Below, in pieces: positions 1 to 40,233 of a DNA stretch of 40,233 bases. Below the pieces are notes generated by a model, which saw nothing but the letters and a program-made list of their open reading frames with translations, was not told the DNA's origin and did not search any database. Both the position numbers and the translations under genes were made by a program. Each line of letters starts with the position of its first letter. The first letter of the stretch is position 1. This DNA comes from Escherichia phage vB_EcoP-101118UKE1: the sequence record MZ234021.1. One strand, given 5' to 3'.

Positions 1-3000
1 ATGCAGGAACGAGAGGACCGCTCTACGTGGTTCGGTTTCGGTGCGGCTACAGAAGCTGAAGTGAAGAACTCTATGGTCGGCGTGGCTATCAGAGCTGGTC
101 AGACTGAGGACTCACTGGATGTCATTGGCGATGTGTTCAACCCAACCCGATGGAATAACCATAAGTGGTCTCGTGAGGAGCTGGACCAGATTCGTAACTC
201 TGGGGTTCTGCCTCAGTATTACGGAGTCATCACTGGTGGTTCCCCTCAGAACCTGACTGAGCTGATTAACTTGGCGCTTGAGAACCAGAAGTTGGACCAA
301 GAGAAGGCCAAGGCCGGGACTGGTGCTCAACTGGCGGCTGGTGTGATTGGTGCTGGCGTGGACCCTCTGACCTACGTTCCTATTGCTGGGCAGGTAGGTA
401 AAGGTGGGAAGCTAGCCAACAAGATGTTCACTGTGGCTGCTCAGTCTGGTGCTCTGGCTGGGGCATCCGAGATTGCTCGAACCTCAGTTGCTGGTGGGGA
501 CGCTCATGTGGCTGAGGCAATTATGGGCGGTGCTCTCTTCGGTGGGGGAATGACAGCTATCGGGGACGCTATCGGCAAGGCCTTAGGCAAGTCAACCAAC
601 GAGTTCGCCGGACCAGCCACACGTCTGGAAGCCCGTGAGACTGCACGTAATGTTGATGGTCAGGACCTGTCGCGTATGCCAATCCGTGAAGGAGAGGAGA
701 CCTTTAGTCATCAAGGCGTTAAGTTCGCTGACGTTCCGAATGAGCCGGGAAGTGTACGATTAGAAGACGGTTCAATCCTGATTGGTGAGAACCCTCTGAA
801 CCCTAAGACACGTCAAGTCTTTGACGAAGTGATTGAGCCTGAACGTGCCGCTGCTGGTGTGAACCTTGGTGGGCTGACTGAGATTGGCCTGAAGCTGCTT
901 CGGTCCGAGAACCCTGAGATTCGTGGAGTAGCTGCTGACTTAGTACGTTCACCGACTGGTATGCAGTCTGGGGCCTCAGGTAAAATAGGGACAACTGCGT
1001 CAGACGTATTCGAGAGACTTCGTGCTGTGGACCATCGGTTCTACAATGACATCGACGATGCGGTTACTGAGGCACTAAAGGACCCGTACTTCCAGACAGC
1101 ATTCTGGCGAGACTCTGGCGCATTCCGTCAAGACATCTATCAGCGCGTGTCTATGGCTATCGAAGATGGTAGCGGAAACCTGAAGGCTGAATTGACTCCG
1201 GGAGAACTGAAAGTCTATGACCTGCTGAAGAACCAGTTTGACGCCAAGCGTGAGATGATGGAGAACCCGGCGATGTTTGGTCGCCCAGACGCTCAGTCTA
1301 TCTTTCCGGGTAGCCGCTTCAAGGGAACATACGTCCCGCATGTGTATAGCAACCAGATGAAGGAGCTGTACATCAAGGAGCTTGGGAGTCCAGAGGCACT
1401 ACAGGAGGCCATCAAGAAGTCATGGTTGACCAGCTATGCGTCTCGACCTGAAGTCAAGAAACGCGTGGACGAGGCACTTTTAGAGGCTGACCCTACGTTG
1501 ACTCCAGAAGGACTTGCGGCTGCGGTCGATAAGTACGCCAACGATAAGGCTTATGGTATCTCTCACACCGAGCAGTTCGAGCGTTCATCCGTAATGGAGG
1601 AGAACATCAACGGGCTGGTTGGTCTGGAGAACAACAGCTTCCTTGAGGCTCGTAACCTGTTCGATAGCGATATGTCAATCGTTCTTCCTAACGGTCAGAC
1701 CTTCAGTGTCAACAACCTGCGTGAGTGGGACATGGACAAGATTGTCCCGGCCTACAACCGTCGAGTTAATGGTGATATTGCTATCATGGCTGGTACAGGC
1801 AAGACCACGAAGGAAATGAAGGACTTAGTTGAGACCATGATGAACAAGGCTGGCGATGACGGAAAGTTGAAAGGTGAAGTATCTACCTTACGTGACACCC
1901 TGAAGATTCTCACTGGTCGTGCTCGACGTGATGGTGCTGATGATGCGGCCTTCGCTACCGTGATGCGCACGATGACAGACCTATCGTTCTTCGCTAAGAA
2001 TGCCTACATGGGTGTTCAGAACTTAACGGAGATTGGTGGTATGCTGGCTCGTGGTAACGTTCGTGCAATGCTTCATGGAGTCCCAATTTTCCGTGACCTA
2101 GCCTTCCGTAACAAGAAGGTTGGGGCCTCAGAGATTAAGGACCTGCACAATGTTATCTTCGGTAAGGAACTGGATGACTCAATCCGTCCGTCTAAACAGG
2201 ATGTCATTGACCGTCTGCGATCTTACAGTGACCTCGGTCGTGGTACAGCTACAGCTCTGGGGACTGCCAAGTATTACACTGGCGAACTTGCAGTACGCTC
2301 TCCGTTCACTAAAGTCCTCAACGGTACGACCAACTACCTGTTAGATGCTGGACGTCAAGGCTTCCTGTCTGACATCGTGGAGCATAGCCTGACTGGTAGT
2401 AAGCGTAAGTTCGATGACCGCTGGCTGAAGACCGCTGGTATATCTGACGAGCAGTGGAGTGGAATTAAGTCCCTAATCCGTGAGTCAGTGACTCGTGGGC
2501 CAGACGGGAAGTACACCATCAAGGATAAGAAGGCGTTCAGTCAGGACCCAAGGGCTATGGACCTGTGGCGTATGGGTGACACCATCGCTGACGAGACGTT
2601 ACTCCGGCCTCATAAGCTGTCAAACATGGACGCCAAGGCTTATGGGCCTCTCGCTAAGACTGTCCTTCAGTTTAAGAACTTCGTCATCAAGTCTATCAAT
2701 GGGAGAACCATGCGAACCTTCTATAACGCCACGAAGAACAACAGAGCGATTGACGCTGCACTGTCGACCGTGATGTCTATGGGTCTGGCTGGTATCTACT
2801 ACATGGCTCAGGCGCATGTCAAGGCTTATGCTATGCAGGATGGTCGAGACCGTGACTACCTTAAGCAAGCTCTGGACCCAACGATGATTGGCTATGCGGC
2901 CCTGTCCCGTAGTTCACATCTTGGTGGCCTACTTGGGGTAGCTAACATTCTGGGAGGCATCGCTGGATATGAGGACACTAAGATGCTCCGTTCGTCTATC

Positions 3001-3303
3001 CTACCTCGTTCTCCTACAGATAAGCCTGAGCGTGCCATCGCGTATGGTGCAGCTACAAGTGACCCTGTGATGAATGTTGTTGGTAACTTCTTGGAGCAGG
3101 TTCCAGCTTTCGGATATGCTGCTAACGTTGGCGCTTCGGCTTACAACTTGGCTGGCTACCTCAAGGCTGATACTCGTGTCAACGAGCGTGACTACATGAC
3201 CGGGATGTATAATACGTTCCGTGAACTGGTTCCGAACGACCCCATTACCCAGAAGCTGCTGCTTGGAACGTTTGAGGAGCAAGGCATCCACATCAAGGAC
3301 TAA
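1..3303 (+). CDS. Internal virion (ejection) protein gp16, C-terminal 1100 aa; gene is split by the window boundary and continues from 39649..40233
   Basis: Long ORF colinear with T7 gp16 from about residue 220 onward (e.g. RSTWFGFG, TGGSP, VRSPTGMQSGASGK, GTYVPHVY, MDLWRM); stop TAA 3301-3303. Confidence 0.9.
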   Translation: MQEREDRSTWFGFGAATEAEVKNSMVGVAIRAGQTEDSLDVIGDVFNPTRWNNHKWSREELDQIRNSGVLPQYYGVITGGSPQNLTELINLALENQKLDQEKAKAGTGAQLAAGVIGAGVDPLTYVPIAGQVGKGGKLANKMFTVAAQSGALAGASEIARTSVAGGDAHVAEAIMGGALFGGGMTAIGDAIGKALGKSTNEFAGPATRLEARETARNVDGQDLSRMPIREGEETFSHQGVKFADVPNEPGSVRLEDGSILIGENPLNPKTRQVFDEVIEPERAAAGVNLGGLTEIGLKLLRSENPEIRGVAADLVRSPTGMQSGASGKIGTTASDVFERLRAVDHRFYNDIDDAVTEALKDPYFQTAFWRDSGAFRQDIYQRVSMAIEDGSGNLKAELTPGELKVYDLLKNQFDAKREMMENPAMFGRPDAQSIFPGSRFKGTYVPHVYSNQMKELYIKELGSPEALQEAIKKSWLTSYASRPEVKKRVDEALLEADPTLTPEGLAAAVDKYANDKAYGISHTEQFERSSVMEENINGLVGLENNSFLEARNLFDSDMSIVLPNGQTFSVNNLREWDMDKIVPAYNRRVNGDIAIMAGTGKTTKEMKDLVETMMNKAGDDGKLKGEVSTLRDTLKILTGRARRDGADDAAFATVMRTMTDLSFFAKNAYMGVQNLTEIGGMLARGNVRAMLHGVPIFRDLAFRNKKVGASEIKDLHNVIFGKELDDSIRPSKQDVIDRLRSYSDLGRGTATALGTAKYYTGELAVRSPFTKVLNGTTNYLLDAGRQGFLSDIVEHSLTGSKRKFDDRWLKTAGISDEQWSGIKSLIRESVTRGPDGKYTIKDKKAFSQDPRAMDLWRMGDTIADETLLRPHKLSNMDAKAYGPLAKTVLQFKNFVIKSINGRTMRTFYNATKNNRAIDAALSTVMSMGLAGIYYMAQAHVKAYAMQDGRDRDYLKQALDPTMIGYAALSRSSHLGGLLGVANILGGIAGYEDTKMLRSSILPRSPTDKPERAIAYGAATSDPVMNVVGNFLEQVPAFGYAANVGASAYNLAGYLKADTRVNERDYMTGMYNTFRELVPNDPITQKLLLGTFEEQGIHIKD

Positions 3304-3367: not shown

Positions 3368-5548
3368 ATGTCCACGATTACACAATTCCCTTCAGGAAAC
3401 ACTCAGTACAGGATTGAGTTCGACTACCTAGCCAGAACGTTTGTTGTTGTTACGCTGGTGAATAGCTCTAACCCTACCCTGAACCGTGTACTGGAAGTTG
3501 GTCGAGATTACCGATTCCTTAATCCAACGATGATTGAGATGTTGGCTGACCAATCAGGTTTCGACATCGTTCGTATTCACCGTCAGACTGGAACTGACTT
3601 AGTGGTAGACTTCAGGAATGGCTCAGTGTTGACAGCTAGTGACCTGACCAATTCAGAGCTTCAGGCTATCCATATTGCAGAAGAAGGTCGAGACCAAACG
3701 GTTGACTTAGCGAAGGAATATGCCGATGCTGCTGGCAGCTCTGCTGGCAACGCTAAGGATAGCGAGGACGAAGCACGCCGAATCACTGCGAGTATCAAGG
3801 CAGCTGGTAAAATTGGCTATATTACCCGTCGCTCCTTCGAGAAAGGCTTCAACGTTACAACATGGAACGAGGTCCTGCTATGGGAAGAGGATGGTGATTA
3901 TTACCGCTGGGATGGTACGCTTCCAAAGAACGTTCCCGCTGGTTCAACTCCTGAATCATCTGGTGGTATTGGGCTGAGTGCGTGGGTTAGTGTTGGTGAT
4001 GCGTCACTTAGAGCAAACCTGTCTGATAGTGATGGCGCTAAATACATAGGAAGTGGAGAAAGGACATTACTTGAGCACAACAATGATGTTTTGCACTCAA
4101 AAGACTTTCCAACACTGCAGGCAGCTATAGATGCATCTTTGCAAAAAAATGATCTACTGGTGTCTCCTGGCAATTATACTGAAAAAGTTACTATTGGAAA
4201 CGCGCAGTTAAAAGGTGTTGGCGGGGCCACGGTACTAAAAACTCCGGCAGACTTTACAAACACTGTTCAGGTTAATTTAGCTACACCTCATTGGCAATTC
4301 CGCCATAGTGGTGGTTTTGCTATAGATGGTTCCGGGACAACCGGGGCCGTAGGTATTAGTTTTGACCCGTCAGACCAATATTCCGGACGTCATAATTTTA
4401 GTGATGTATACATCCACAACATCAACAAGGCCATTCAGAAGCCTTCCGGGAACATCGGCAATACTTGGAGAAATATTGGGATATCTACGTGTGATTGGGG
4501 GTATTACGCGATTAGTGGCTCAGAGATGCATTGCGGGGCCGATACCCTCTACAATATCCACTTCGATGGCATCTCCACCTATGCAGTCTATCTAAACGGC
4601 ACTGTCGATAATGGCGGGGGGGGCGCATGGTGGCTTAAAGACTCCATTATTGAGGCTTCCGGAGGTGGCGGGATATACTTAAAAAGTAAATCGGGCGACT
4701 GTCCTACATCTCCATGCGGGGTATCCAATATATGGATGGAAGCGATCGCAACATCACCGGCTGTTCAGGTAGACGGCGTGGCGCAAAAACCGCGAGTTCT
4801 CAAGTTGGTAGACACAGCGATATTCTTTGCTGAGTATTCTTATCTCAACAACATCGAGCTATCCAACTCCAACTTAGTAACTTATGGTTGCCGTTTTGAC
4901 AACGCTGATGGCAATCAGGATATTGTCGTGGATGCACAAAGCACCATTGTAGCCCATGACGTGTATTTAAACGGCAGTTCTGGAAAGGACGTTATTGTGG
5001 AGTCCGTCGCATCGCAATCTGCAACGATAGCTACCACAAACTTATCTCTGAGGGGCAACTTAACAAGAGGGAGAGTATTTAATACGCCGACAGGGAATAA
5101 ATTAATGGCTATCACATTTGACTCAGGTAGCTATAATTTTTCTGGCAGCGGCACCGTTAACGGTTCGACTGTATCTGACGGACTTCACGCCGCTACATGT
5201 ACCGAATTTTCATTCCCCGGAGCCGGTTTATATGAAATGGTAGCGACAAGAACAACCATTACATCCGGTAGATGGTACGTGTGGGGAGTTAACTCACGCC
5301 TACAATCTGGCTCGGCGGATATTAGTATAACGTCAGGTATTACCATGGGTAGTGTTTACACAAAGCAGGGGGAGTGGATTAGCACTTTCGGTGTAGGAAA
5401 GGCATCTACCACTGGCACTGTAGCGCTATACGTTTCCACAGGAGGAGGTTCGGGAGCTACGGTCAGATTCAGTGACTTTTTCATCGCTGAGTTTACGACG
5501 CAAGCTCAGGCTTTATCTTTCGCCAATTCAAGGATGTCGTTATCATAA
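3368..5548 (+). CDS. Tail fiber / tailspike (gp17-like N-terminal adaptor, beta-helix-like C-terminal region)
   Basis: AAAGGAGG RBS 3356-3363; N-terminal ~150 aa resemble T7 gp17 (EFDYLARTFVVVTL, DYRF, LVDFRNGSVL, IAEEGRD); remainder unrelated to T7 fiber, Gly/Asn/Ser/Thr-rich with repetitive strand-like segments. Confidence 0.85.
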   Translation: MSTITQFPSGNTQYRIEFDYLARTFVVVTLVNSSNPTLNRVLEVGRDYRFLNPTMIEMLADQSGFDIVRIHRQTGTDLVVDFRNGSVLTASDLTNSELQAIHIAEEGRDQTVDLAKEYADAAGSSAGNAKDSEDEARRITASIKAAGKIGYITRRSFEKGFNVTTWNEVLLWEEDGDYYRWDGTLPKNVPAGSTPESSGGIGLSAWVSVGDASLRANLSDSDGAKYIGSGERTLLEHNNDVLHSKDFPTLQAAIDASLQKNDLLVSPGNYTEKVTIGNAQLKGVGGATVLKTPADFTNTVQVNLATPHWQFRHSGGFAIDGSGTTGAVGISFDPSDQYSGRHNFSDVYIHNINKAIQKPSGNIGNTWRNIGISTCDWGYYAISGSEMHCGADTLYNIHFDGISTYAVYLNGTVDNGGGGAWWLKDSIIEASGGGGIYLKSKSGDCPTSPCGVSNIWMEAIATSPAVQVDGVAQKPRVLKLVDTAIFFAEYSYLNNIELSNSNLVTYGCRFDNADGNQDIVVDAQSTIVAHDVYLNGSSGKDVIVESVASQSATIATTNLSLRGNLTRGRVFNTPTGNKLMAITFDSGSYNFSGSGTVNGSTVSDGLHAATCTEFSFPGAGLYEMVATRTTITSGRWYVWGVNSRLQSGSADISITSGITMGSVYTKQGEWISTFGVGKASTTGTVALYVSTGGGSGATVRFSDFFIAEFTTQAQALSFANSRMSLS

Positions 5549-10664: not shown

Positions 10665-11168
10665 ATGGAACGTAATGCTAACGCATACTATGAGCTGCTG
10701 GCTGCAACCGTTGAGGCATTTATCGAGCGTATTCAGTGCGACCACCTGACTAAAGATGACGACTACAGCGCTGCGCTGCATGAGGTCGTAGACGGTCAGG
10801 TTCCACACTATTACCACGAGATTTTCATGGTGATGGCTGCTGATGGTATAGACAACGAGTTCGAAGACTCTGGGATGATACCTGAAACCAAGGACGTAAC
10901 GCGTATCCTACAAGCTCGCATCTATGAGGCACTTTATAACGACGTGTCTAATAGCTTGGATGTAGTCTGGTTTGAGGATGAAGAGGCAGACGAAGAGGAT
11001 GAATATTGGGTAGTTGACGCTAAAACAGGCGCAATAATTGTGCAAGCTGTAGCTCTTGAGGTCGCTACTGCATGTGCCAAGGTTAACTATGCGGCAGGTC
11101 GCCACCTTCAGGTGGAAGACATCAATGATAACGTAGTGTTTGACCCTGCTGCTGAGGACTGCGAGTGA
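10665..11168 (+). CDS. Ocr-like anti-restriction DNA-mimic protein (gp0.3) with ~50-aa C-terminal extension
   Basis: GAGAGGA RBS; VPHYYHEIFMVMAADGIDNEFEDSGMIPETKDVTRILQARIYE closely matches T7 Ocr; acidic tract then extra 50 aa absent from 117-aa T7 Ocr. Confidence 0.85.
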   Translation: MERNANAYYELLAATVEAFIERIQCDHLTKDDDYSAALHEVVDGQVPHYYHEIFMVMAADGIDNEFEDSGMIPETKDVTRILQARIYEALYNDVSNSLDVVWFEDEEADEEDEYWVVDAKTGAIIVQAVALEVATACAKVNYAAGRHLQVEDINDNVVFDPAAEDCE

Positions 11169-22812: not shown

Positions 22813-22837
22813 AAGGTCATTCACATAGAGTGGCCTT
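22813..22837 (+). promoter_or_regulatory. Putative RNase III processing hairpin after gene 4 region
   Basis: AAGGTCAT 22813-22820 / GTGGCCTT 22830-22837. Confidence 0.45.
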
Positions 22838-22865
22838 TATGATTAGACTAAACGGAGGATTAACC

Positions 22866-23267
22866 ATGTTTGATTGCATTGAGTGGACCGGGTGCCGAGA
22901 CCGTTTCGGATACGGTATGCGAAAGGTCAACGGGAAAGTCCGTAGACTGCATCTAATAGCCTTCGAGGAGGCGAACGGTCCGATACCTGAAGGAATGGTC
23001 GTGCGACATAAGTGTGACAACCCATCGTGTTACAACCCAGCACACTTAGAGCTGGGGACACGGGCTGACAACAATCGTGATAGAGACGTAAGAGGTCGAA
23101 CAGCTAAGGGAGTGAGGCATTGGAGTTCTAGGCTTACACCTGAAATAATACAAGAGGCCAAGGTGCTCTACGCAGGAGGTGGATGGACTCACCGCTCCCT
23201 AGGTGAGAAGTATGGAGTGGGACACCGCACGATAGCTAGAGCAATTGGAGGAGAAACATGGACTTAA
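22866..23267 (+). CDS. HNH homing endonuclease (paralog of 39218..39667)
   Basis: ACGGAGGA RBS before ATG 22866; RHKCDNPSCYNPAHLELGTRADN motif. Confidence 0.8.
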   Translation: MFDCIEWTGCRDRFGYGMRKVNGKVRRLHLIAFEEANGPIPEGMVVRHKCDNPSCYNPAHLELGTRADNNRDRDVRGRTAKGVRHWSSRLTPEIIQEAKVLYAGGGWTHRSLGEKYGVGHRTIARAIGGETWT

Positions 23268-25426
23268 GTAACGTATACGGGTCTGACATCGAGACCAACG
23301 GTCTCCTTGATACAGTCTCCCAGTTTCACTGTGGGGTCCTGATTAACGCCGAGTCGAATGAGACCCTTAAGTATGGGGTAGCTCCGATGGTCGGTATCGT
23401 CGGTGGCTTCAAAGAGTATGTTCATAAAGTGGAAGAGATTGCCGCATCGCCTGATGGTATGCTTGTATTCCACAACGGTATCAACTATGACGTACCGGCT
23501 ATCGACAAGCTGAAGCGTCTGTACTTTGGGAAGCGTTTTAACTTCCCGAAACACAAGATGGTTGATACCTTGGTGCTGGGCCGCTTGATGTATCCAAACA
23601 TTAAGTTCTCAGACATGGGCGCTGTGAAAGCTGGTCGTCTGCCACCTCAGATGATGGGACGACAGTCTCTTGAGGCTTGGGGCTATCGTCTCGGTGAGAT
23701 GAAAGGTGAATACAAACACGATTATGTTGCCAAATGCAAGGCTGAAGGTATCGAATATAAGGCTGGGGACGAATGGTTGTTCCCGTCTCAGGAGATGCTG
23801 GACTATAACGTTCAAGACGTTGTGGTCACACTGGCGTTGTTCAAGAAGTTCCTGACTGACAAGTATTACTTCCAGTCTGAACAGTTCGCTTTCGACCAGA
23901 TTTATGCGTTGCGTCTGGAACATGATGCTGCGTGGACCTGTGCGAAGATGGAACGTAACGGCTATCCGATGAACACCGAGATGGTCGAAGGCTTATATCG
24001 TGAACTCACCGTCAAACGTGCAGAGTTGTTGGACAAGCTGCGTTCGACTTTCGGTAGCTGGTATGCACCAAAGGGAGGCAAGGAGTTCTTCAAGCACCCA
24101 CGGACAGGCAAGGACCTTCCGAAGTATCCGCGAGTCGTGTATCCTAAGGTCGGGTCAGTATTCAAGAAGCCGAAGAACAAAGCTCAACGATTAGGTCTGG
24201 AGCCTTGCGAGTTCGACTCACGAGACACGATGGAAGGAGCACCGTTCACACCTATCACTTACGTTGAGTTTAATCCGGGAAGCGGAGACCACTTAGCGAA
24301 AGTCCTGATGGAGCGTGGCTGGGAGCCTGTGGACTTCACTGACACCGGGAAACCTGTAGTCGATGACGAGACGTTGGAACACGTTAAGTTACCAGACGCA
24401 GAGGCTCAGGCTTGCGTAGAGCTGGTCCGTGAGTATCTGGTAGTCCAGAAGCGCATCGGTCAGGCGGCTGAAGGTAAGAACGCATGGTTGAAACTTGTAG
24501 GTCCAGACGGACGTATGCACGGCTCAATAAACCCATGCGGGGCAGTAACCGGACGTGCGACCCATAGTTCACCAAACATGGCTCAGGTCCCGGCTAACGG
24601 TGCTCCATATGGTGAGACTTGCCGTGGTGCTTTCGGTGCAGCGTGGAACAAGAAGGACGGTAAGCCAGACCCTTGGATTCAAGTTGGTGTGGATGCCTCA
24701 GGTCTTGAGCTTCGTTGTCTTGGGAACAGAGCGGCTCCGTTTGATGGTGGTGCATATGCGAAGACTGTGGTAGAAGGTGACATCCACTGGGCCAACGCAG
24801 TAAACGCTGGGTTAGCACCTAACGTCCAACGCGATAAGTCTAACCACGACCATGAGGCTTTCCGTAACAACGCTAAGACGTTCATCTACGCGTTCCTGTA
24901 TGGTGCAGGGGCCGCTAAGATTGGACTGATAGTAGGCGGTGGTAAGAAGGAAGGTTCAGCGCTCATGAAGAAATTCATTGAGGGTACACCAGCTATCAAG
25001 GACCTCAGGGAAGCTGTAAGTAATACGTTAATCTCAGACTCTAAGTGGGTGGACGGAGAGAACATCGTTAAATGGAAACGTCGCTGGCTGAAAGGTCTGG
25101 ATGGTCGTCGTATTCACATCCGGTCTCCACACTCAGCACTTAACGCCCTACTTCAGGGGGACGGTGCGGTTGTCTGTAAGCACTGGATGGTACTGACTGA
25201 GAAGAAACTTGAAGAGGCTGGTTACGGTAACGGATGGGACGGCGACTTTGCGCTAATGGCTTGGATTCACGATGAATTGCAGATAGCGTGCCGTACTCAG
25301 GAGATAGCAGAAGATGTCGTCCGTATTGCTCAAGAGGCGATGCGCGAGGTCGGACGCTTCTATAACTTCAAGTGTGAACTTGATACGGAGGGTAAGATTG
25401 GACCAACGTGGAAAGAGTGTCATTGA
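23258..25426 (+). CDS. DNA polymerase (gp5)
   Basis: 722 aa, colinear with T7 gp5 (SDIE exo motif, AVTGRATH, NAKTFIYAFLYGAG, HDE). Confidence 0.97.
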   Translation: MDLSNVYGSDIETNGLLDTVSQFHCGVLINAESNETLKYGVAPMVGIVGGFKEYVHKVEEIAASPDGMLVFHNGINYDVPAIDKLKRLYFGKRFNFPKHKMVDTLVLGRLMYPNIKFSDMGAVKAGRLPPQMMGRQSLEAWGYRLGEMKGEYKHDYVAKCKAEGIEYKAGDEWLFPSQEMLDYNVQDVVVTLALFKKFLTDKYYFQSEQFAFDQIYALRLEHDAAWTCAKMERNGYPMNTEMVEGLYRELTVKRAELLDKLRSTFGSWYAPKGGKEFFKHPRTGKDLPKYPRVVYPKVGSVFKKPKNKAQRLGLEPCEFDSRDTMEGAPFTPITYVEFNPGSGDHLAKVLMERGWEPVDFTDTGKPVVDDETLEHVKLPDAEAQACVELVREYLVVQKRIGQAAEGKNAWLKLVGPDGRMHGSINPCGAVTGRATHSSPNMAQVPANGAPYGETCRGAFGAAWNKKDGKPDPWIQVGVDASGLELRCLGNRAAPFDGGAYAKTVVEGDIHWANAVNAGLAPNVQRDKSNHDHEAFRNNAKTFIYAFLYGAGAAKIGLIVGGGKKEGSALMKKFIEGTPAIKDLREAVSNTLISDSKWVDGENIVKWKRRWLKGLDGRRIHIRSPHSALNALLQGDGAVVCKHWMVLTEKKLEEAGYGNGWDGDFALMAWIHDELQIACRTQEIAEDVVRIAQEAMREVGRFYNFKCELDTEGKIGPTWKECH

Positions 25427-25457
25427 CCCTCGAACCCAGACCCTACGCTTCCACACC

Positions 25458-25739
25458 ATGCCTACCGGATGTATCGTCTGCGTGTCCCACAAGAGGAACC
25501 AAGATGGGTACTTCCGGTACTCCATGGGAAGCTACAGGAAGGGCAACAAGTTCGCCTTCATGTTCCACCGATGGGTGTGGGAGCAGAAGCGCGGACCTAT
25601 ACCAAATGGCTACGAAATAGACCATTTGTGCTTGAACCGTGGGTGCTGCAACATAGAGCATCTACAGTGTATTCCAAAACGCGAACACGTCATTAAGACG
25701 AACCGTGAGCGCAAACTTGTTAAGAAGGAGTGTCACTAA
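25458..25739 (+). CDS. HNH homing endonuclease (gp5.3 position)
   Basis: EIDHLCLNRGCCNIEHL motif; start set at first ATG after polymerase stop; no clear SD, start uncertain. Confidence 0.7.
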   Translation: MPTGCIVCVSHKRNQDGYFRYSMGSYRKGNKFAFMFHRWVWEQKRGPIPNGYEIDHLCLNRGCCNIEHLQCIPKREHVIKTNRERKLVKKECH

Positions 25740-31044: not shown

Positions 31045-31067
31045 ACTAAACTATCACTATAGGGAGA
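31045..31067 (+). promoter_or_regulatory. Phage RNAP promoter (phi10-type, major capsid), +1 at 31062
   Basis: ACTAAACTATCACTATA/GGGAGA, the only copy with the full GGGAGA start. Confidence 0.9.
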
Positions 31068-31169: not shown

Positions 31170-32219
31170 ATGGCAAACGTTCCGGGTCAGAAAGTTGGTA
31201 CAGACCAAGGTAAAGGCAAATCTGGTTCCGACGCTCTGGCGTTGTTCCTGAAGGTCTTTGCTGGCGAAGTCCTGACAGCATTCACTCGCCGCTCTGTAAC
31301 TGCTGACAAGCATATTGTCCGTACCATTCAGAACGGTAAGTCTGCTCAGTTCCCGGTCATGGGTCGCACCTCTGGTGTGTATCTGGCTCCGGGTGAGCGA
31401 CTGTCCGATAAGCGTAAAGGTATCAAACATACCGAGAAAGTGATTACCATTGATGGTCTGCTGACTGCCGATGTGATGATTTTCGACATTGAAGACGCGA
31501 TGAACCACTATGACGTGGCTGGCGAGTACTCCAACCAGTTGGGCGAAGCTCTGGCTATCGCTGCCGATGGTGCGGTACTGGCTGAGATGGCTATTCTGTG
31601 TAACCTACCGGCTGCATCTGATGAAAACATCGCTGGTCTTGGCAAAGCGTCTGTGCTGGAAGTTGGTACTAAAGCAGACCTGAACACTCCGGCTAAGCTG
31701 GGTGAAGCAATCATCGGTCAACTGACCATTGCTCGTGCGAAGCTGACATCCAACTACGTTCCTGCTGGCGACCGTTACTTCTACACCACGCCGGACAACT
31801 ACTCTGCAATCCTCGCGGCTCTGATGCCGAACGCTGCTAACTATGCTGCGCTGATTGACCCAGAGACTGGTAACATCCGTAACGTAATGGGCTTCGTGGT
31901 TGTTGAAGTTCCACACTTGACTCAGGGTGGTGCTGGGGAAACTCGTGGTGCCGATGGTATCGCTATTGCGACTGGTCAGAAGCACGCCTTCCCAGCTACT
32001 GCTACTGGTGATGTTAAAGTTGCTCTGGACAACGTTGTGGGCCTGTTCTCTCACCGTTCTGCTGTAGGTACTGTTAAGCTGCGTGACTTGGCGCTGGAAC
32101 GTGACCGTGACGTCGATGCTCAGGGCGACCTGATTGTTGGTAAGTACGCTATGGGTCACGGTGGTCTGCGTCCAGAAGCAGCAGGCGCACTGGTTTTCAC
32201 AGCGGCGTCAGCGGGTTAA
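31170..32219 (+). CDS. Major capsid protein gp10A
   Basis: 349 aa; FLKVF.GEVLTAF, KHTEKVITIDGLLTADV, YAALIDPE, HRSAVGTVKLRDLALER match T7 gp10. Confidence 0.97.
   Translation: MANVPGQKVGTDQGKGKSGSDALALFLKVFAGEVLTAFTRRSVTADKHIVRTIQNGKSAQFPVMGRTSGVYLAPGERLSDKRKGIKHTEKVITIDGLLTADVMIFDIEDAMNHYDVAGEYSNQLGEALAIAADGAVLAEMAILCNLPAASDENIAGLGKASVLEVGTKADLNTPAKLGEAIIGQLTIARAKLTSNYVPAGDRYFYTTPDNYSAILAALMPNAANYAALIDPETGNIRNVMGFVVVEVPHLTQGGAGETRGADGIAIATGQKHAFPATATGDVKVALDNVVGLFSHRSAVGTVKLRDLALERDRDVDAQGDLIVGKYAMGHGGLRPEAAGALVFTAASAG
32192..32198 (+). promoter_or_regulatory. Putative -1 programmed ribosomal frameshift site in capsid gene
   Basis: G GTT TTC heptamer eight codons before the 10A stop, same motif and position as in T7 gene 10; -1 frame open to 32482. 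Confidence 0.5.
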
Positions 32220-32482
32220 CGACCTTTAAGGCCCTCTCTACAGAGGGTCCTACCTTAGAGACGTATAGTTCTACGGTGGGAACCAGCCTGAAGGTTGACT
32301 TCCCTGAGCTTTCAGATGTGACCGATTGGTCGCTGCTTGAGGTGACTACGCCTGATGGTGTTAGCTACTCCCGTAGAACCAACAGTCTCTACTTCAAGGC
32401 CACCTCTGGCGTGGAAGGTCTGGTGATTGTTGGGTATGACGGGACGCCTGTGCGTTCCTTCAACGTATCTTTCACAAACTAA
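32198..32482 (+). CDS. C-terminal extension of minor capsid protein gp10B, reached by -1 frameshift from gene 10A
   Basis: -1 frame is open from 32144 to stop at 32482; conserved GGTTTTC heptamer 32192-32198 as at the T7 10A/10B shift site. Confidence 0.55.
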   Translation, partial: HSGVSGLTTFKALSTEGPTLETYSSTVGTSLKVDFPELSDVTDWSLLEVTTPDGVSYSRRTNSLYFKATSGVEGLVIVGYDGTPVRSFNVSFTN

Positions 32483-32488
32483 TTGAAA

Positions 32489-32526
32489 CCCCTTGGGTGC
32501 CTTCGGGTGCTTGAGGGGTTTTTTTT
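32489..32526 (+). terminator. Tphi-like late terminator after capsid gene
   Basis: CCCCTTGGGTGC-CTTCGG-GTGCTTGAGGGG stem-loop followed by TTTTTTTT, closely resembling T7 Tphi. Confidence 0.9.
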
Positions 32527-32641: not shown

Positions 32642-33208
32642 ATGGCTCAATACATTCCACTGAATGCTAACGATGACTTAGATGCCATCAACGATATGTT
32701 AGCAGCTATCGGTGAACCAGCAGTCCTACAGCTTGACGAAGGTAACGCTGACGTCTCGAACGCTCAACGTATCCTGCATCGTGTCAATCGTCAGGTCCAA
32801 GCTAAAGGCTGGAACTTTAACATCAACGAAGCTGCTGTCCTGACACCTGATGTCCAAGACAATAGGATTCGATTCCTGCCGTCTTACCTTCGGGTCATGA
32901 CTGCTGGTGCTACCAGTTACTACAGCAACATGGGGGGCTATCTCTATGACCTGTCCACTCAGTCCACGACCTTCACTGGACCAATTACAGTCGAACTGGT
33001 GGAGATGAAACCGTTCGCTGAGATGCCTGTAGTATTCCGTGACTACATCGTTACCAAGGCCAGCCGTGAGTTCAACGCTAAGTTCTTCGGTAGCCCAGAG
33101 TCTGAACTGTACCTTCGTGAGCAGGAAGCAGAACTCTATCAGCAGGTCATGGAATACGAGATGGATACTGGTCGCTACAACATGATGTCAGACATCGGGA
33201 GGGACTAA
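32642..33208 (+). CDS. Tail tubular protein A (gp11)
   Basis: AAGGAG RBS; INDMLAAIGEP, GWNFNINEA, YEMD motifs as in T7 gp11. Confidence 0.92.
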   Translation: MAQYIPLNANDDLDAINDMLAAIGEPAVLQLDEGNADVSNAQRILHRVNRQVQAKGWNFNINEAAVLTPDVQDNRIRFLPSYLRVMTAGATSYYSNMGGYLYDLSTQSTTFTGPITVELVEMKPFAEMPVVFRDYIVTKASREFNAKFFGSPESELYLREQEAELYQQVMEYEMDTGRYNMMSDIGRD

Positions 33209-33435
33209 TGGCTAGTCACAACCTGAAGATTCACCGCCAGCACTTTGGTCTGGTACAACTAGGTCTAAAGACAGCAGAGCTGAGACTTAACGACCGGGAC
33301 TTTAAGGTTGGCGACTGGCTTATCCTGAATGAGTGGGACAACGGGTATACTGGACAACAGGTAGCGCGTAAGGTTGTCCACATTGCTGACGTTGGTGAGA
33401 TCGCTGAGGGATATGTCCTAATGAGTATGATTTAA
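33208..33435 (+). CDS. Small ASCH/PUA-like protein (DUF3850-like?), inserted between gp11 and gp12
   Basis: GGGAGGG RBS, TAATG overlap with gp11 stop; LKIHRQHF...KTAELRLNDRDFKVGDWLIL pattern. Confidence 0.55.
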   Translation: MASHNLKIHRQHFGLVQLGLKTAELRLNDRDFKVGDWLILNEWDNGYTGQQVARKVVHIADVGEIAEGYVLMSMI

Positions 33436-33444
33436 GGAGAGCCT

Positions 33445-35802
33445 ATGCCATTAATTACGCAAAGCATAAAAAATCTTAAAGGTGGTATTAGCCAACAGCC
33501 TGACATCCTGAGGTTCTCAGACCAAGGCGAGGCTCAAGTTAACTGCTGGTCATCCGAGAGTGATGGCCTCCAGAAGCGTCCACCTACAGTCTTCAAGCGA
33601 CGTCTTAACATCGACGTTGGGAGCAACCCTAAGTTCCACCTGATTAACCGTGATGAGCAGGAGCAGTATTACATCGTGTTCAACGGGTCCAACATTCAGG
33701 TAGTCGACTTGAGCGGTAATCAGTACTCAGTTTCAGGTGCGGTAGACTACGTTAAGTCGTCCAACCCGCGAGATGACATCCGTGTCGTTACAGTTGCAGA
33801 CTATACGTTCGTCGTTAACCGTAAGGTTGTCGTTAAAGGTGGAAGCGATAAGTCACACTCTGGTTATAATCGTAAAGCACGCGCTTTAATTAACCTGCGT
33901 GGTGGACAGTATGGTCGCACCCTTAAGGTAGGAATCAACGGAGGCGTTAAGGTTTCGCATAAGTTGCCAGCAGGTAATGATGCCGAGAATGACCCTCCTA
34001 AGGTTGATGCTCAGGCTATCGGTGCAGCTCTGAGAGACCTTCTTGTTGCTGCTTACCCTACCTTCACGTTCGACCTTGGGTCTGGATTCCTGTTAATCAC
34101 TGCCCCTTCAGGGACTGACATTAACTCAGTGGAGACGGAGGATGGCTACGCTAACCAGCTAATCAGCCCAGTACTCGACACGGTGCAAACAATCTCTAAG
34201 CTGCCTCTTGCAGCTCCAAATGGGTACATCATTAAGATTCAAGGTGAGACCAACAGTAGCGCCGATGAGTATTACGTGATGTATGACTCCAACACTAAGA
34301 CGTGGAAGGAGACAGTAGAGCCGGGAGTGGTCACTGGGTTCGATAACACCACAATGCCACATGCTCTGGTTAGACAATCTGACGGCTCCTTTGAGTTCAA
34401 GACTCTGGACTGGTCTAAGCGGGGTGCTGGTAATGATGACACAAACCCTATGCCTAGCTTCGTGGATGCTACGATTAACGATGTGTTCTTCTACAGGAAC
34501 AGGCTAGGGTTCTTGTCAGGAGAGAACGTAATCATGAGCCGTTCAGCCAGCTACTTTGCGTTCTTCCCTAAGAGTGTGGCGACATTGAGTGATGATGACC
34601 CTATTGACGTAGCTGTAAGTCACCCTAGAATCTCAATACTTAAGTATGCCGTTCCGTTTAGCGAGCAGCTACTACTTTGGTCAGATGAGGTGCAGTTCGT
34701 GATGACAAGCTCGGGGGTCCTTACCTCGAAGTCTATCCAGCTTGATGTAGGCTCAGAGTTTGCCTTAGAAGATAACGCCAGACCGTTCGCTGTAGGACGC
34801 TCAGTCTTCTTCTCAGCGCCTCGTGGGTCATTCACCAGTATTAAGCGATACTTCGCTGTAGCAGATGTGTCTGACGTGAAGGATGCCGATGATACCACTG
34901 GTCACGTACTGTCCTATATCCCTAACGGGGTGTTTGACATTCAAGGTACAGGGACTGAGAACTACATCTGCGTCAACTCCACAGGTGCATGCAACCGAAT
35001 CTACATCTACAAGTTCTTGTTTAAGGACGGCGTACAACTTCAAGCCTCTTGGTCGCACTGGGAGTTCCCTAAAGCTGATAAGATTCTGGCGTCTGCGTCG
35101 ATTGGCTCTACCATGTTCATTGTTCGTCAGCACCAAGGGGGTGTGGACATTGAGCACCTTAAGTTCATCAAGGAGGCAACCGACTTTCCATTAGAGCCGT
35201 ATAGACTCCACGTTGACTCTAAGGTGTCTATGGTAATACCAATTGGCTCATACAACGCTGACACCTATAAGACTACGGTTGACATTGGTTCTGCTTATGG
35301 TGGAAACGCTCCGTCTCCCGGTAGGTACTATCTGATTGACAGTCAGGGTGCCTACGTGGACCTTGGTGAATTGACCGACATCTCAACTGTGGCTGTACTC
35401 AATGGTGATTGGTCAGGACGTACAGTGTTCATCGGACGGTCTTATCTGATGTCCTACAAGTTCTCACGGTTCCTGATTAAGATTGAAGACGAGAGTGGCA
35501 CTCAGTCTGAAGACACTGGTCGTCTACAGCTTCGTCGTGCTTGGGTAAACTACAAGGACACTGGCGCTCTTAGACTCATTGTCAGAAACGGTGAGCGGGA
35601 GTTCGTGAACACCTTTAATGGGTACACCCTTGGTCAGCAAACCATAGGGACTACCAACATTGGGGATGGTCAGTATCGATTCGCTATGAATGGCAACGCA
35701 TTAACCACGAGTCTAACCTTAGAGTCCGACTATCCTACCCCGGTGTCCATCGTTGGGTGTGGCTGGGAGGCGTCATACGCTAAGAAAGCTCGTTCCGTCT
35801 AA
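33445..35802 (+). CDS. Tail tubular protein B (gp12)
   Basis: 785 aa; SIKNLKGGISQQPDILR, GFLSGENVIMSR, DDDPIDVAVS, LRRAWVNY, IVGCGWEA match T7 gp12. Confidence 0.95.
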   Translation: MPLITQSIKNLKGGISQQPDILRFSDQGEAQVNCWSSESDGLQKRPPTVFKRRLNIDVGSNPKFHLINRDEQEQYYIVFNGSNIQVVDLSGNQYSVSGAVDYVKSSNPRDDIRVVTVADYTFVVNRKVVVKGGSDKSHSGYNRKARALINLRGGQYGRTLKVGINGGVKVSHKLPAGNDAENDPPKVDAQAIGAALRDLLVAAYPTFTFDLGSGFLLITAPSGTDINSVETEDGYANQLISPVLDTVQTISKLPLAAPNGYIIKIQGETNSSADEYYVMYDSNTKTWKETVEPGVVTGFDNTTMPHALVRQSDGSFEFKTLDWSKRGAGNDDTNPMPSFVDATINDVFFYRNRLGFLSGENVIMSRSASYFAFFPKSVATLSDDDPIDVAVSHPRISILKYAVPFSEQLLLWSDEVQFVMTSSGVLTSKSIQLDVGSEFALEDNARPFAVGRSVFFSAPRGSFTSIKRYFAVADVSDVKDADDTTGHVLSYIPNGVFDIQGTGTENYICVNSTGACNRIYIYKFLFKDGVQLQASWSHWEFPKADKILASASIGSTMFIVRQHQGGVDIEHLKFIKEATDFPLEPYRLHVDSKVSMVIPIGSYNADTYKTTVDIGSAYGGNAPSPGRYYLIDSQGAYVDLGELTDISTVAVLNGDWSGRTVFIGRSYLMSYKFSRFLIKIEDESGTQSEDTGRLQLRRAWVNYKDTGALRLIVRNGEREFVNTFNGYTLGQQTIGTTNIGDGQYRFAMNGNALTTSLTLESDYPTPVSIVGCGWEASYAKKARSV

Positions 35803-35809
35803 CTTATTG

Positions 35810-35859
35810 AAGGGCCTATAGATTTACCTTAACTATCACTATAGGGACTATAGGCCCTT
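35810..35859 (+). repeat. 12-bp perfect inverted repeat bracketing the phi13-type promoter
   Basis: AAGGGCCTATAG 35810-35821 and CTATAGGCCCTT 35848-35859. Confidence 0.6.
35827..35849 (+). promoter_or_regulatory. Phage RNAP promoter (phi13-type), +1 at 35844
   Basis: CCTTAACTATCACTATA/GGGACT, flanked by a 12-bp inverted repeat. Confidence 0.85.
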
Positions 35860-39217: not shown

Positions 39218-39667
39218 ATGAAGAACGGGACAGCCAGTGAGAGACTGGCAGAACTGTCAGCAGGTGAAGAGTCTGGCTGTATCCGATTCACAGGCCACTT
39301 AGACGGAGAAGGATACGGAAGGATAATGGTCAACAGGGTCAAATACAGAGCGCATAGACTTGCTTACGAGCTTGCTAACGGTCCTATACCAGATGGGTAC
39401 GTTGTTCGCCATAAGTGCGACAACCCGTCCTGTATAAACCCAAGACACCTTGAAGTCGGTACCCAAGCTGATAACATAAAGGATAAGGTGACTAGAGGTC
39501 GCCAAGCGTTAGGATGCTTCATAGGATCGTCTAAGCTCACTGAGGAAAGTGTGCGTGATATAAGGTCCAGCAACCTAAAGGTTTCACTTTTGGCTGAACG
39601 CTATGGAGTGAGTACGGTTTCTATTAGAAATATCTTGAGGAGAAAGACATGGCGACACGTGGAGTAA
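39218..39667 (+). CDS. HNH homing endonuclease inserted between gp15 and gp16 (paralog of 22866..23267)
   Basis: TAAGGAG RBS; RHKCDNPSCINPRHLEVGTQADN motif; 3' end overlaps gp16 start. Confidence 0.85.
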   Translation: MKNGTASERLAELSAGEESGCIRFTGHLDGEGYGRIMVNRVKYRAHRLAYELANGPIPDGYVVRHKCDNPSCINPRHLEVGTQADNIKDKVTRGRQALGCFIGSSKLTEESVRDIRSSNLKVSLLAERYGVSTVSIRNILRRKTWRHVE

Positions 39668-40233
39668 GGAACTCAAACCCCGGGAACCTCCGTAAGTCCA
39701 AAGACCAATGGGAAGGTGCTATAGGGGATGATGGTGAATTCGTTATCTTCGACAGCCCTGAATCCGGGGTCCGAGCCTTAGCAAAAAACCTTCAAAGCTA
39801 CGGGCGCCAAGGCTATGACTCAATCGAGAAGATTATCAACCGTTGGGCACCTCCGAACGAGAACGACACTCAGTCCTACATCGACTCGGTTGTATCTGCG
39901 ACTGGTATTCCAGCCACACAGAGTCTCGACCTATCGGACCCTGACACCCTGTCTTCTCTGGCTCAAGCTATCAGCTTCCATGAGACAGGATCCCGGTACG
40001 ACCCAGAAGTCTATCAGAAGGGAGTCGCACGAGCACTCAATGGCATTAGCCCAAAGACTCCACCAGTAAGCGCTAACGTATTTGACGCACTCACGGAAGG
40101 ACTCAAGGCTAAACCTAAAGTAGCTCTGGGTGAGAACCTTCCGACCGCTGCTGGTATGAACATTGAGGGTCAAGCACCTGAAGCTCCCAACGAATCGTTC
40201 GGTGAGATGTTCTATAAGGCTACTGGCGAGACC
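39649..40233 (+). CDS. Internal virion (ejection) protein gp16, N-terminal 195 aa (partial; continues in frame at window position 1)
   Basis: GAGGAG RBS, ATG 39649, open to window end; last residues FYKATGET align with T7 gp16 FWETHGET just before the segment at 1..3303. Confidence 0.85.
   Translation, partial: MATRGVRNSNPGNLRKSKDQWEGAIGDDGEFVIFDSPESGVRALAKNLQSYGRQGYDSIEKIINRWAPPNENDTQSYIDSVVSATGIPATQSLDLSDPDTLSSLAQAISFHETGSRYDPEVYQKGVARALNGISPKTPPVSANVFDALTEGLKAKPKVALGENLPTAAGMNIEGQAPEAPNESFGEMFYKATGET

Follow-up and report, generated by a model that had tools for sequence, protein, structure and literature searches.

A predicted standalone DUF3850 domain encoded between tail tubular genes 11 and 12 of a Kayfunavirus phage

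The gene 11–gene 12 junction and its transcript

The window analysed here is the whole 40,233-nucleotide stretch of Escherichia phage vB_EcoP-101118UKE1 (MZ234021.1), a Kayfunavirus. On its + strand, gene 11 (tail tubular protein A, or gatekeeper; 32642..33208; Pfam Tube, E=6.1e-46; PHROG 446) and gene 12 (tail tubular protein B, or nozzle; 33445..35802; Pfam Phage_nozzle, E=0, 1096 bits) flank a 75-codon ORF at 33208..33435, which starts with ATG and ends with the stop codon TAA (33433..33435). The translation, MASHNLKIHRQHFGLVQLGLKTAELRLNDRDFKVGDWLILNEWDNGYTGQQVARKVVHIADVGEIAEGYVLMSMI, includes the strings cited in the initial annotation of this DNA, and profiles, a structure model and dN/dS identify the ORF as a DUF3850 gene, a predicted standalone mini-ASCH, or PUA-like, beta-barrel. 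The two tail tubular genes are indeed adjacent in T7, as had been stated, where a 23-nt spacer without an ORF separates genes 11 and 12, whereas here the DUF3850 gene intervenes.

Because the window contains 184 ORFs of at least 50 aa, a 75-aa ORF by itself means little. This one stands out by its DUF3850 profile match, its conservation and its dN/dS. A ribosome-binding site, GGGAGGG (33197..33203, +), lies inside the final gp11 codons (I-G-R-D), is followed by a 4-nt gap to the ATG and is kept in 13 of 13 close relatives; IMM-002, which is without the DUF3850 gene, carries GGTCGAGAC at the same site. The gp11 stop codon TAA (33206..33208) and the DUF3850 ATG (33208..33210) overlap as TAATG (33206..33210, +), an arrangement that, judged from the sequence, couples translation of the two genes. 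The strong ribosome-binding site and the coupling to gp11 that had been noted for the ORF both hold up. Gene 12 has its own ribosome-binding site, GGAGAG (33436..33441, +), in the 9-nt spacer that follows the DUF3850 stop codon. An opposite-strand ORF of 50 aa (33231..33383) was rejected as spurious, as the + strand gene accounts fully for the selection and homology. A scan of the whole window against Rfam gave no RNA family match, so there is no evidence for an RNA element instead of a gene.

The promoter search was run with the K1F/EcoDS1-type consensus, CTAAACTATCACTATAGGGA, in place of the T7 consensus. For the former, the window holds 11 sites where 0 would be expected, and the latter has zero matches. 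The nearest phage RNA-polymerase promoter upstream of the ORF (31046..31065, +), the phi10 equivalent, matches the consensus exactly, and the following consensus promoter (35828..35847, +), the phi13 equivalent, sets the downstream limit of the 11-DUF3850-12 segment. In a terminator scan, gene 11 is preceded by a Tphi-like intrinsic terminator (32485..32522, +), which corresponds to the terminator annotated as phiTE in EcoDS1. No promoter of phage type was found between this terminator and gene 11, and late expression of the three genes therefore presumably relies on read-through, as it does in T7. The DUF3850 gene is presumably part of this late 11-12 transcript segment and translated directly after gp11.

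Domain identity, modelled fold and conserved residues

The 75-aa protein matches the Pfam DUF3850 profile (PF12961) with E=1.4e-19 and 70.4 bits against a gathering cutoff of 22.9, with residues 4-73 covering positions 2-76 of 77. It also matches the Pfam ASCH profile (PF04266; E=6.7e-7, 30.4 bits against a cutoff of 21.2), but only at positions 1-62 of 103; positions 63-103 are unmatched, so that by this alignment the protein lacks ~40 positions at the end of the canonical ASCH profile. The ASCH superfamily (PF04266) reportedly goes back to Iyer, Burroughs and Aravind in 2006. DUF3850 and ASCH are the only Pfam matches at E<=1; none of the NCBIfam models matched, and PHROG 986 matches at 3.8e-35.

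Structural comparison agrees with the profiles. The sequence matches that of crystal structure 3IUW at 7e-11, and an AlphaFold2 model (pLDDT 96.6, pTM 0.81, strand/helix order E-H-E-E-E-E) superposes on 3IUW in Foldseek with E=9e-9, TM 0.90 and an rmsd of 1.3 Å. Next, over a probability range of 0.54-1.0 and a TMq range of 0.54-0.74, come PH0355, YqfB, PF0455/PF0470, TTHA0113, EOLA1, TRIP4-ASCH and ZmASCH. The alignment to YqfB spans 98 columns for the 75-aa query, and the profile match to YqfB is marginal, covering residues 10-46 only with E of about 0.4-0.5. As modelled, the protein is a trimmed ASCH/PUA-like beta-barrel consisting of a standalone DUF3850 domain. The ASCH/DUF3850 resemblance first noticed from the sequence alone was thus confirmed by profile search, by the sequence match to 3IUW and by structure prediction.

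The ASCH octapeptide G-x-K-x-x-[E/T/S]-x-R, as defined in a preprint (10.64898/2026.02.27.708502), is intact (G19-L-K21-T-A-E24-L-R26) and of the 'GKER' subtype. The DUF3850 signature is also complete (K21, E24, R26, N28, D29, R30, D31, F32, G35 and D36). Among 78 diverse homologs gathered by profile search, K21, R30, G35, D36, E42 and G49 are invariant, H4, L6, K7, E24, R26, N28, D29, D31, K33 and T48 are conserved in at least 90%, and F32 in 81%; the NDRDF motif is near-invariant. An earlier alignment, A2, was biased because its loci had been collected via the NDRDFKVG pattern. Most members of the family are acidic or neutral (median pI 6.1), and the protein in the window has a pI of 6.4 and a net charge of -1. 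This mostly acidic character makes a specific pocket a better fit than generic electrostatic binding of nucleic acid.

A dispensable accessory gene of Kayfunavirus

The stretch 33208..33435 is a genuine protein-coding gene under purifying selection. In close relatives, dN/dS is 0.125 for the DUF3850 gene; gp11 (0.026) and gp12 (0.057) have lower values. The ORF is kept with its ribosome-binding site and TAATG in all 13 close relatives fetched, synteny is maintained to 67% amino-acid identity, and GC content and codon usage are like those of gp11 and gp12 and unlike those of the window's HNH genes. The idea that the ORF is only a translational spacer was discarded because it encodes a protein under purifying selection that belongs to a widespread domain family.

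The gene is already known and annotated in many deposited Kayfunavirus genomes, where the label is 'RNA-binding protein', 'DUF3850 domain containing protein' or 'hypothetical protein', and about three quarters of Kayfunavirus relatives have the cassette. The initial annotation had called such a gene unexpected in a structural operon. This is correct when set against the usual sites of DUF3850 genes in replication and recombination modules, but not for Kayfunavirus, in which it is a common annotated cassette.

The cassette spans 237 bp (33208..33444, +), from the DUF3850 ATG to the last base before the gp12 ATG, as delimited by alignment with K1F, the junctions of K1F, ST0223 and ZG49 and a survey of records. 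Its edges carry similar strings of ribosome-binding site plus ATG, GGAGGGACTAATG upstream and GGAGAGCCTATG downstream, the latter being GGAGGGCCTATG in most relatives. In the type phage K1F, the cassette is missing by a precise 237-bp ATG-to-ATG deletion, which recurs in at least seven other Kayfunavirus isolates; these phages are viable and have near-identical gp11 and gp12. Across the deletion isolates (K1F, ST0223, ZG49 and others), identity to K1F over the 501-bp gp11/gp12 junction is 95-100%. The gene is missing from T7, K1F, 216Ecol046PP, pO2, SR04, ZG49, R1, ST0223, Pipis, IMM-002, SFPH2 and others. The precise natural deletion indicates that the DUF3850 gene is not essential and does not encode a tail component. 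The cassette is therefore best described as a long-resident, dispensable, presence/absence accessory gene of Kayfunavirus.

Candidate functions and related systems

The earlier proposal of 'RNA or modified-nucleic-acid binding' is still an analogy-based annotation. By inference, the product is most likely cytoplasmic, with a base-binding pocket, and would act on nucleic acid or nucleosides. We lean, by a little over even chances, towards a protein that is not part of the virion and would use a single conserved polar pocket to do its work inside the infected cell. The putative pocket would comprise the octapeptide G19-x-K21-x-x-E24-x-R26, the N28-D29-R30-D31-F32 loop and H4, K7, E42 and T48, and its ligand would be a cytosine-type base, probably N4-modified, either in flipped-out form from a nucleic acid or as part of a free nucleoside. 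Since natural deletion variants are viable, any benefit to the phage would be conditional on host or environment.

One chemistry that such a pocket may carry out is known from full-size ASCH proteins, only just shown to remove ac4C from tRNA: all 19 of those assayed deacetylated tRNA in vitro, and TthASCH, EOLA1 and TRIP4-ASCH cannot remove ac4C without the octapeptide-equivalent Lys and Glu (10.64898/2026.02.27.708502). By analogy, the 75-aa protein is possibly an N4-acylcytidine deacylase, and the chemistry that we put forward, at well below even odds, is an ASCH-type hydrolytic deacylation of N4-acylated cytidine by a K21/E24 dyad. Example targets would be ac4C34 of host elongator tRNA-Met or the ac4C nucleoside set free when host RNA is degraded. 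None of the 19 assayed proteins is DUF3850-type, and the structural tree of the same study left out alignments of <80 aa (10.64898/2026.02.27.708502). The GKER-type ZmASCH and TRIP4-ASCH do not hydrolyse free ac4C, and an intact motif is therefore no guarantee of that chemistry. The truncation relative to the ASCH profile also counts against it. Two observations sit uneasily with ac4C as the substrate: the replication-module context of DUF3850 elsewhere suggests DNA and not tRNA, and an obvious gain to a T7-like phage from ac4C removal is lacking. The boldest form of the proposal is a long shot: that, among active ASCH enzymes, this is the smallest, and that it is the first RNA-modification eraser encoded by a virus, removing ac4C late in infection from the wobble base of host elongator tRNA-Met, or acting on a different N4-acylated cytosine in RNA or DNA. 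If true, such an activity would retune decoding, salvage or tRNA-directed host defence and would account for DUF3850 genes in thousands of phages.

The main alternative for the same pocket involves no catalysis: it would read or bind DNA at intermediates of replication or recombination. As a rival in its own right, the protein would be a DNA-directed accessory factor whose barrel simply binds a DNA structure or modified base (ssDNA, DNA ends or methylated DNA of host or phage, for example) and which aids or regulates replication, recombination or packaging, with no hydrolysis involved. Homologs in unrelated phages sit inside replication and recombination modules, where they adjoin helicase/primase, P2 gpA, Pol I/helicase or SSB/resolvase genes, and families of these two kinds dominate a census of the neighbours of DUF3850 homologs, a link to nucleic-acid transactions that also suits the favoured pocket-based reading. 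Also consistent with a DNA target, TRIP4-ASCH has been crystallised on dsDNA (8YFJ, 9KYL), EOLA1, though its pI is 6.4, binds both ss and ds DNA, ParB-CTPase-DUF3850 fusions pair the domain with a DNA-segregation fold beside parA in prophages (PMC12704722), and PUA-superfamily domains including ASCH are listed as modified-base sensors of type IV restriction enzymes (PMC12191111). However, the strict K/E/R octapeptide and ~13 conserved polar residues exceed what most binding modules conserve, the family is mostly acidic, and the gene here lies in the late structural segment, away from replication genes. On balance, a DNA-directed factor is a serious but minority possibility.

The wider family gives few further hints. 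DUF3850 comprises ~18,900 clusters at 50% identity and is strongly phage- and prophage-associated. Among 45 longer DUF3850 proteins, almost no recognisable partner domain was found; one DnaA_C HTH, one RNase_T and two DUF1642 domains are too sparse for functional inference. Literature mentioning DUF3850 gives no function, searches for the Kayfunavirus 'RNA-binding protein' found nothing, and 'orf91' returned unrelated phage ORFs only. Neither fusion partners nor defence-model scans provided a functional clue for DUF3850.

An anti-defence or host-takeover protein, which would bind a host protein or sequester a small-molecule signal with nucleic acid not its target, is unlikely. Small size, an accessory hot spot location, presence/absence polymorphism among very close relatives and phage/prophage enrichment are all typical of counter-defence genes. 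Against this, the protein resembles no known anti-defence or defence family (a PADLOC-DB scan gave no significant match, the best being PDC-M07B with E=0.0076, 14.3 bits and 34 residues), its conserved residues map to the ASCH catalytic/nucleoside pocket and not to a variable interaction surface, and late expression is ill-suited against early-acting defences.

Even less probable is that the cassette is selfish cargo, hitch-hiking with homing endonucleases while the phage gains nothing. The gp11/gp12 slot does hold homing endonucleases or remnants in KM02, B1 and LI10P1: an endonuclease gene lies directly 3' of the DUF3850 gene in the first two, and an Endonuclease_7 remnant is fused to the first five codons of the DUF3850 gene in LI10P1. 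Furthermore, the gene has a dS of 0.23, below the values of 0.38 and 0.29 in its flanks, as would fit a recent spread. However, the purifying selection on the protein, codon usage that is fully ameliorated unlike that of the HNH genes, the absence of an adjacent endonuclease from most carriers and the conservation of a very large family across many phage types all argue against this reading. A tail-assembly helper or minor virion protein, which the position between tail-tube genes, the coupling to gp11 and late expression would suggest, is already largely refuted by the viable deletion isolates and runs counter to the lack of such a gene in T7, the usual replication context of DUF3850 and the enzyme- or reader-type fold. 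Band-based MS of phage B1 virions, the sole virion dataset found for a phage with this gene order, reported six abundant proteins, with the DUF3850 product ORF40, gp11 and gp12 all unreported (PMC12785254); having missed the two tail proteins as well, it carries no weight either way.

As a genome feature, the locus is ordinary, an annotated gene whose Pfam family includes a solved crystal structure; the interest lies in the function of the very large phage-linked DUF3850 family. Kayfunavirus offers a clean test system for family function, with easy growth on E. coli, a bare domain and natural, isogenic-like deletions of the K1F type. ATG-to-ATG excision is simple and leaves gp12 expression intact.

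The cassette invites comparison with free-standing homing endonucleases (HNH_3, Endonuclease_7), with which it shares an intergenic slot between T7-group genes and presence/absence polymorphism. It differs in encoding a 75-aa protein without a nuclease motif and in codon usage, which is core-like and unlike that of the window's three HNH genes. No HNH, Endonuclease_7, GIY-YIG or LAGLIDADG domain was found in the protein by Pfam at E<=1, a method that readily detects the three HNH_3 ORFs of the window and the LI10P1 Endonuclease_7 remnant.

Next to the ASCH-domain N4-acetylcytidine amidohydrolases and tRNA ac4C erasers, namely YqfB of E. coli (9KYF), TTHA0113 of T. thermophilus (2DP9) and human EOLA1 and TRIP4-ASCH, the 75-aa protein has the same beta-barrel fold in its model, with the octapeptide Lys, Glu and Arg in register, and its GKER subtype is that of TthASCH, EOLA1 and TRIP4. 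YqfB belongs to the GKTR subgroup, with Thr24 in place of Glu24, and has a C-terminal helical segment bearing Glu74. The domain here ends after 75 aa, and the missing part probably includes the one that supplies YqfB Glu74; the Thr of YqfB-type (GKTR) enzymes is absent here, and their Glu74 segment probably is too. The protein has additional family-specific conserved residues, namely NDRDF, H4, K7 and E42.

Other Kayfunavirus copies, including those of EcoDS1 (AS9_0040 / YP_002003774), LM33_P1, Vec13, PE3-1, Bas105 and others, have 92-99% amino-acid identity with the window copy and identical position, ribosome-binding site and TAATG, the sole notable difference being L15, which is P15 in most relatives. 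Beyond the genus, the nearest homologs (42-62% identity) are Shigella phage DS8 gp29, P2/L-413C orf91 and a protein of Hafnia phage TS33, enterobacterial siphovirus or P2-like phage proteins that have the domain in common with the Kayfunavirus copy. Genes of this type are in replication modules (helicase/primase, gpA, Pol I), whereas the Kayfunavirus copy is in a late operon, and their products often have a 60-70 aa C-terminal extension with no Pfam match, whereas the Kayfunavirus copy is the bare domain. The closest known structure, 3IUW, is an 83-aa E. faecalis EF_2590-type 'activating signal cointegrator' from structural genomics; its identity to the 75-aa protein is 38-41%, and the 75-aa protein matches the 77-position family profile over its full length. 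The DUF3850 family and the 75-aa protein share the standalone architecture of ~75-80 aa and the K-x-x-E-x-R-x-NDRDF-x-VGD signature, and the domain itself is not substantively different from the rest of the family; what is unusual is its location in a T7-like late operon.

A DUF3850 gene between the tail tubular genes

The 75-codon open reading frame (ORF) at 33208..33435 (+), called here the DUF3850 gene, begins with ATG and has gp11 (32642..33208 (+); Pfam Tube, 6.1e-46) on its 5′ side and gp12 (33445..35802 (+); Pfam Phage_nozzle) on its 3′ side. A ribosome-binding site (RBS), GGGAGGG (33197..33203 (+)), is located 4 nt 5′ of the ATG, which overlaps the gp11 stop in a TAATG string (33206..33210 (+)). 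This arrangement agrees with the initial annotation, whose quoted amino acid strings occur in the translation, as does its contrast with T7, in which an ORF-free spacer of 23 nt lies between genes 11 and 12. The window has phage promoters at 30059, 31046 and 35828 and, at 32485..32522, a Tphi-like terminator. The promoter search assigns genes 11, DUF3850 and 12 no promoter of their own, and by analogy with T7 they are presumably expressed late via terminator read-through.

Separately, an open stretch in the −1 frame with respect to gp10A runs from 32144 to 32482 (+); it takes in the listed ORF 32276..32482 and overlaps the final ~75 nt of gene 10, whose end is at 32219. The encoded product matches PHROG 7473 (4.3e-35) and resembles a capsid protein extended by frameshifting, of the gp10B type, which is how EcoDS1 is annotated by similarity.

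A length of 75 aa is by itself unremarkable, because the window holds 184 ORFs of at least 50 aa; gene status rests on homology and selection. The window belongs to Kayfunavirus, and its gp11–gp12 region is 99.1% identical to that of Escherichia phage vB_EcoP-22664BS1 and 95–98% identical to those of LM33_P1, Vec13 and EcoDS1. All 13 close relatives fetched keep the 75-codon ORF, the same RBS and the same TAATG. Nei–Gojobori dN/dS values for 14 sequences are 0.125 for the DUF3850 gene, 0.026 for gp11 and 0.057 for gp12. The GC content of the DUF3850 gene (0.489) is level with that of gp11 and gp12, and its CAI-like index is 0.665 (gp11, 0.687; gp12, 0.664; core genes, 0.66–0.75), compared with 0.50–0.55 for the three HNH_3 genes of the window. 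Furthermore, the order Tube, DUF3850, nozzle persists in ~40-kb T7-like contigs at 67–68% homolog identity. These patterns show a real, long-resident gene.

Among the 14 Kayfunavirus genomes, dS is lower in the DUF3850 gene (0.23; window 33208..33432) than in gp12 (0.29; 33445..35799) or gp11 (0.38; 32642..33205), which is compatible with the cassette having spread more recently by recombination, or with extra RNA constraint. Codon 15 (33250..33252) encodes Leu in the window and Pro (HFGPVQLG) in nearly all close relatives; this position is inside the predicted helix and varies across the family. In Salmonella phage vB Seyj3-1 (MW416012), the gp12 start reads MPLSTRSIKSLITQSIKNL, a 24-nt tandem duplication of gp12 N-terminal codons relative to other Kayfunavirus genomes that may be genuine or an assembly artefact.

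An ASCH-type fold

The initial annotation also proposed an ASCH-like domain of the DUF3850 type, and this assignment is upheld by both profile searches and structure prediction. Specifically, the match to Pfam DUF3850 spans the full length (E=1.4e-19; 70.4 bits, cutoff 22.9), that to Pfam ASCH is above cutoff over the N-terminal 62 of 103 positions (E=6.7e-7), and PHROG 986 ('RNA-binding protein') is matched at 3.8e-35; NCBIfam has no model for this protein. A very confident AlphaFold2 model built on 78 homologs (pLDDT 96.6, pTM 0.81) has five strands and one helix. Foldseek superposes this model on 3IUW with a TM of 0.90 at 1.3 Å, followed by the ASCH proteins PH0355, YqfB, PF0455/0470, TTHA0113, EOLA1, TRIP4-ASCH and ZmASCH. 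The 83-aa Enterococcus faecalis protein 3IUW, from structural genomics, is the only solved relative by sequence (E=7e-11, or 8e-28 with a family profile). The protein is thus a member of Pfam DUF3850 and the ASCH superfamily, showing every defining feature that can be examined in silico. It is neither a nuclease nor a virion protein. Public annotation already includes both gene and domain, under the labels 'RNA-binding protein' (RefSeq, via PHROGs), 'DUF3850 domain containing protein' and 'hypothetical protein'.

A dispensable cassette in an accessory-gene slot

K1F, the type phage, lacks the DUF3850 gene; there, the stop codon of gene 11 overlaps the ATG of gene 12. Alignment of K1F with the window reveals a difference of exactly 237 bp (33208..33444), from the DUF3850 ATG to the gp12 ATG. 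A junction query shows that this empty site is shared by 216Ecol046PP, pO2, SR04, ZG49, vB_EcoP-R1, Salmonella phage ST0223 and Pipis, and the gene is also missing from the more distant Kayfunavirus-like phages IMM-002, Ro103C3lw, EP1, SFPH2, GW1 and IME278. Among about 214 records with this junction, the gene is present in roughly 160, an approximation because these numbers come from two different searches.

In K1F, ST0223 and ZG49, gp11 still ends in the RBS-adapted form (GGGAGGGACTAATG or GGGAGAGACTAATG) used for DUF3850 in other genomes, unlike in IMM-002, which has a T7-like 14-nt spacer and a gp11 3′ end without an RBS (GGTCGAGACTAA). For this reason, the K1F state is most simply read as a secondary deletion between two similar RBS-plus-ATG strings, after which gp12 would be translated from the former DUF3850 start. 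Because viable, widely used phages without the gene have 501-bp junctions 95–100% identical to that of K1F, the gene is dispensable and an essential or structural role is excluded. Kayfunavirus provides clean natural knockouts for work on a very large, uncharacterised family of phage proteins.

The slot is also an accessory-gene hot spot that hosts homing endonucleases. For example, KM02 has the order gp11, DUF3850, endonuclease (146 aa; 1006..1446 of its locus), gp12, and an identical four-gene layout occurs in Enterobacter phage B1 (PMC12785254). In LI10P1 (OZ035803; locus L092, about 550..700), a 50-aa chimeric ORF starts with five DUF3850 codons (MASHN) and continues as the C-terminal half of an Endonuclease_7 domain (PF02945, 5.4e-14), evidently the product of a deletion across both genes.

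Three free-standing HNH_3 homing-endonuclease ORFs lie elsewhere in the window, at 22830..23267 (+; Pfam E=2.7e-17), 25314..25739 (+; 4.4e-19) and, between genes 15 and 16, 39218..39667 (+; 6.3e-17). The window is a circularly permuted T7-like genome cut within gene 16 (1..3303 and about 39660..40233), such that the lytic-transglycosylase-like N-terminal part of gp16 exits the 3′ end and resumes as an ORF from position 1. In the gp17 tail fibre/spike (3368..5548 (+)), the N-terminal domain of T7 tail fibres is joined by a Tail_spike_N (TSP1/Gp66) domain; because no endosialidase domain is matched in gp17, this phage probably does not share the K1-capsule specificity of K1F. An Ocr homolog (DNA mimic, anti-restriction) of 167 aa (10665..11168 (+); Pfam ocr, 1.4e-26) exceeds the 101-position profile.

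Family context and candidate chemistry

DUF3850 homologs occur in 477 phage records (tblastn), with at most 62% identity outside Kayfunavirus. In Shigella phage DS8 the homolog is flanked by helicase and primase, and in Hafnia phage TS33 by Pol I and helicase; in Listeria phage 293 it has SSB and a resolvase nearby, and in P2-like L-413C it is orf91, which overlaps the end of the gene for the replication initiator gpA. In a Pfam census covering 130 neighbour genes in 48 non-redundant IMG/VR loci, the leading families are Phage_GPA, DUF3987, REP_ORF2-G2P, Sigma70_r4_2, Toprim and D12 methyltransferase, then NinG, NinB, DnaG zinc ribbon, RusA, HNH and helicase domains; none of the 25 families listed is a virion protein family. 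The late-operon position is therefore atypical for the family and normal for Kayfunavirus. The initial annotation had called this location unexpected, which stands at family level and falls within the genus, where the gene is a typical, dispensable cassette in a mobile-gene hot spot.

The closest relatives outside the genus are N-terminal domains of 143–148-aa proteins encoded in the replication modules of enterobacterial siphoviruses; most family members stand alone, at 76–100 aa. The family comprises 7,421 clusters at 90% identity (word-seeded profile search) or 18,896 at 50% (exhaustive search), and the literature mentioning DUF3850 yielded no assay of such a protein.

The ASCH octapeptide is intact (G19-x-K21-x-x-E24-x-R26). 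Across 78 diverse homologs, K21, R30, G35, D36, E42 and G49 are invariant and H4, L6, K7, E24, R26, N28, D29, D31, K33 and T48 are at least 90% conserved, a density of conserved polar residues that is unusual for a 75-aa domain. Acidic or neutral proteins prevail in the family (median pI 6.1, with 69% below 7); the protein from the window has a pI of 6.4 and a net charge of −1.

The barrel would offer a single pocket for a cytosine-type, possibly N4-modified, base, with K21/E24-dependent deacylation as the likeliest chemistry. We slightly favour a cytoplasmic role in which the protein uses this predicted pocket to act on a nucleic acid or nucleoside; that it is specifically an N4-acylcytidine-type hydrolase is a tentative and rather unlikely proposal. 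Several observations weigh against catalysis. The domain stops ~40 positions short of the canonical ASCH profile's end (63–103 unmatched), Foldseek alignment of the 75-aa model to YqfB takes 98 columns, and the absent segment probably includes that bearing YqfB Glu74. Moreover, in the study that assayed 19 ASCH proteins, DUF3850-type proteins were not included, alignments under 80 aa were left out of the structural tree, and two GKER-type proteins lacked hydrolysis of free ac4C (10.64898/2026.02.27.708502). The main alternative is non-catalytic DNA reading in replication or recombination. A YqfB-type amidohydrolase is ruled out by Glu in place of Thr and the lack of the C-terminal segment. The protein gives no significant match to a known defence component in PADLOC-DB.

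According to a 2026 preprint, all 19 ASCH proteins assayed (bacterial, archaeal and human) strip ac4C from tRNA in vitro, and the Glu-type ('GKER') TthASCH, EOLA1 and TRIP4-ASCH need the octapeptide Lys and Glu (10.64898/2026.02.27.708502). Other activities of the fold include dsDNA binding by TRIP4 (PDB 8YFJ, 9KYL), ssRNA cleavage by ZmASCH, modified-base sensing by type IV restriction enzymes (PMC12191111) and, for the glycosylase BapA, a predicted pocket for flipped 5hmC. DUF3850 itself is found in ParB-CTPase–DUF3850 fusions that adjoin parA in prophages, one of which binds CTP (PMC12704722).
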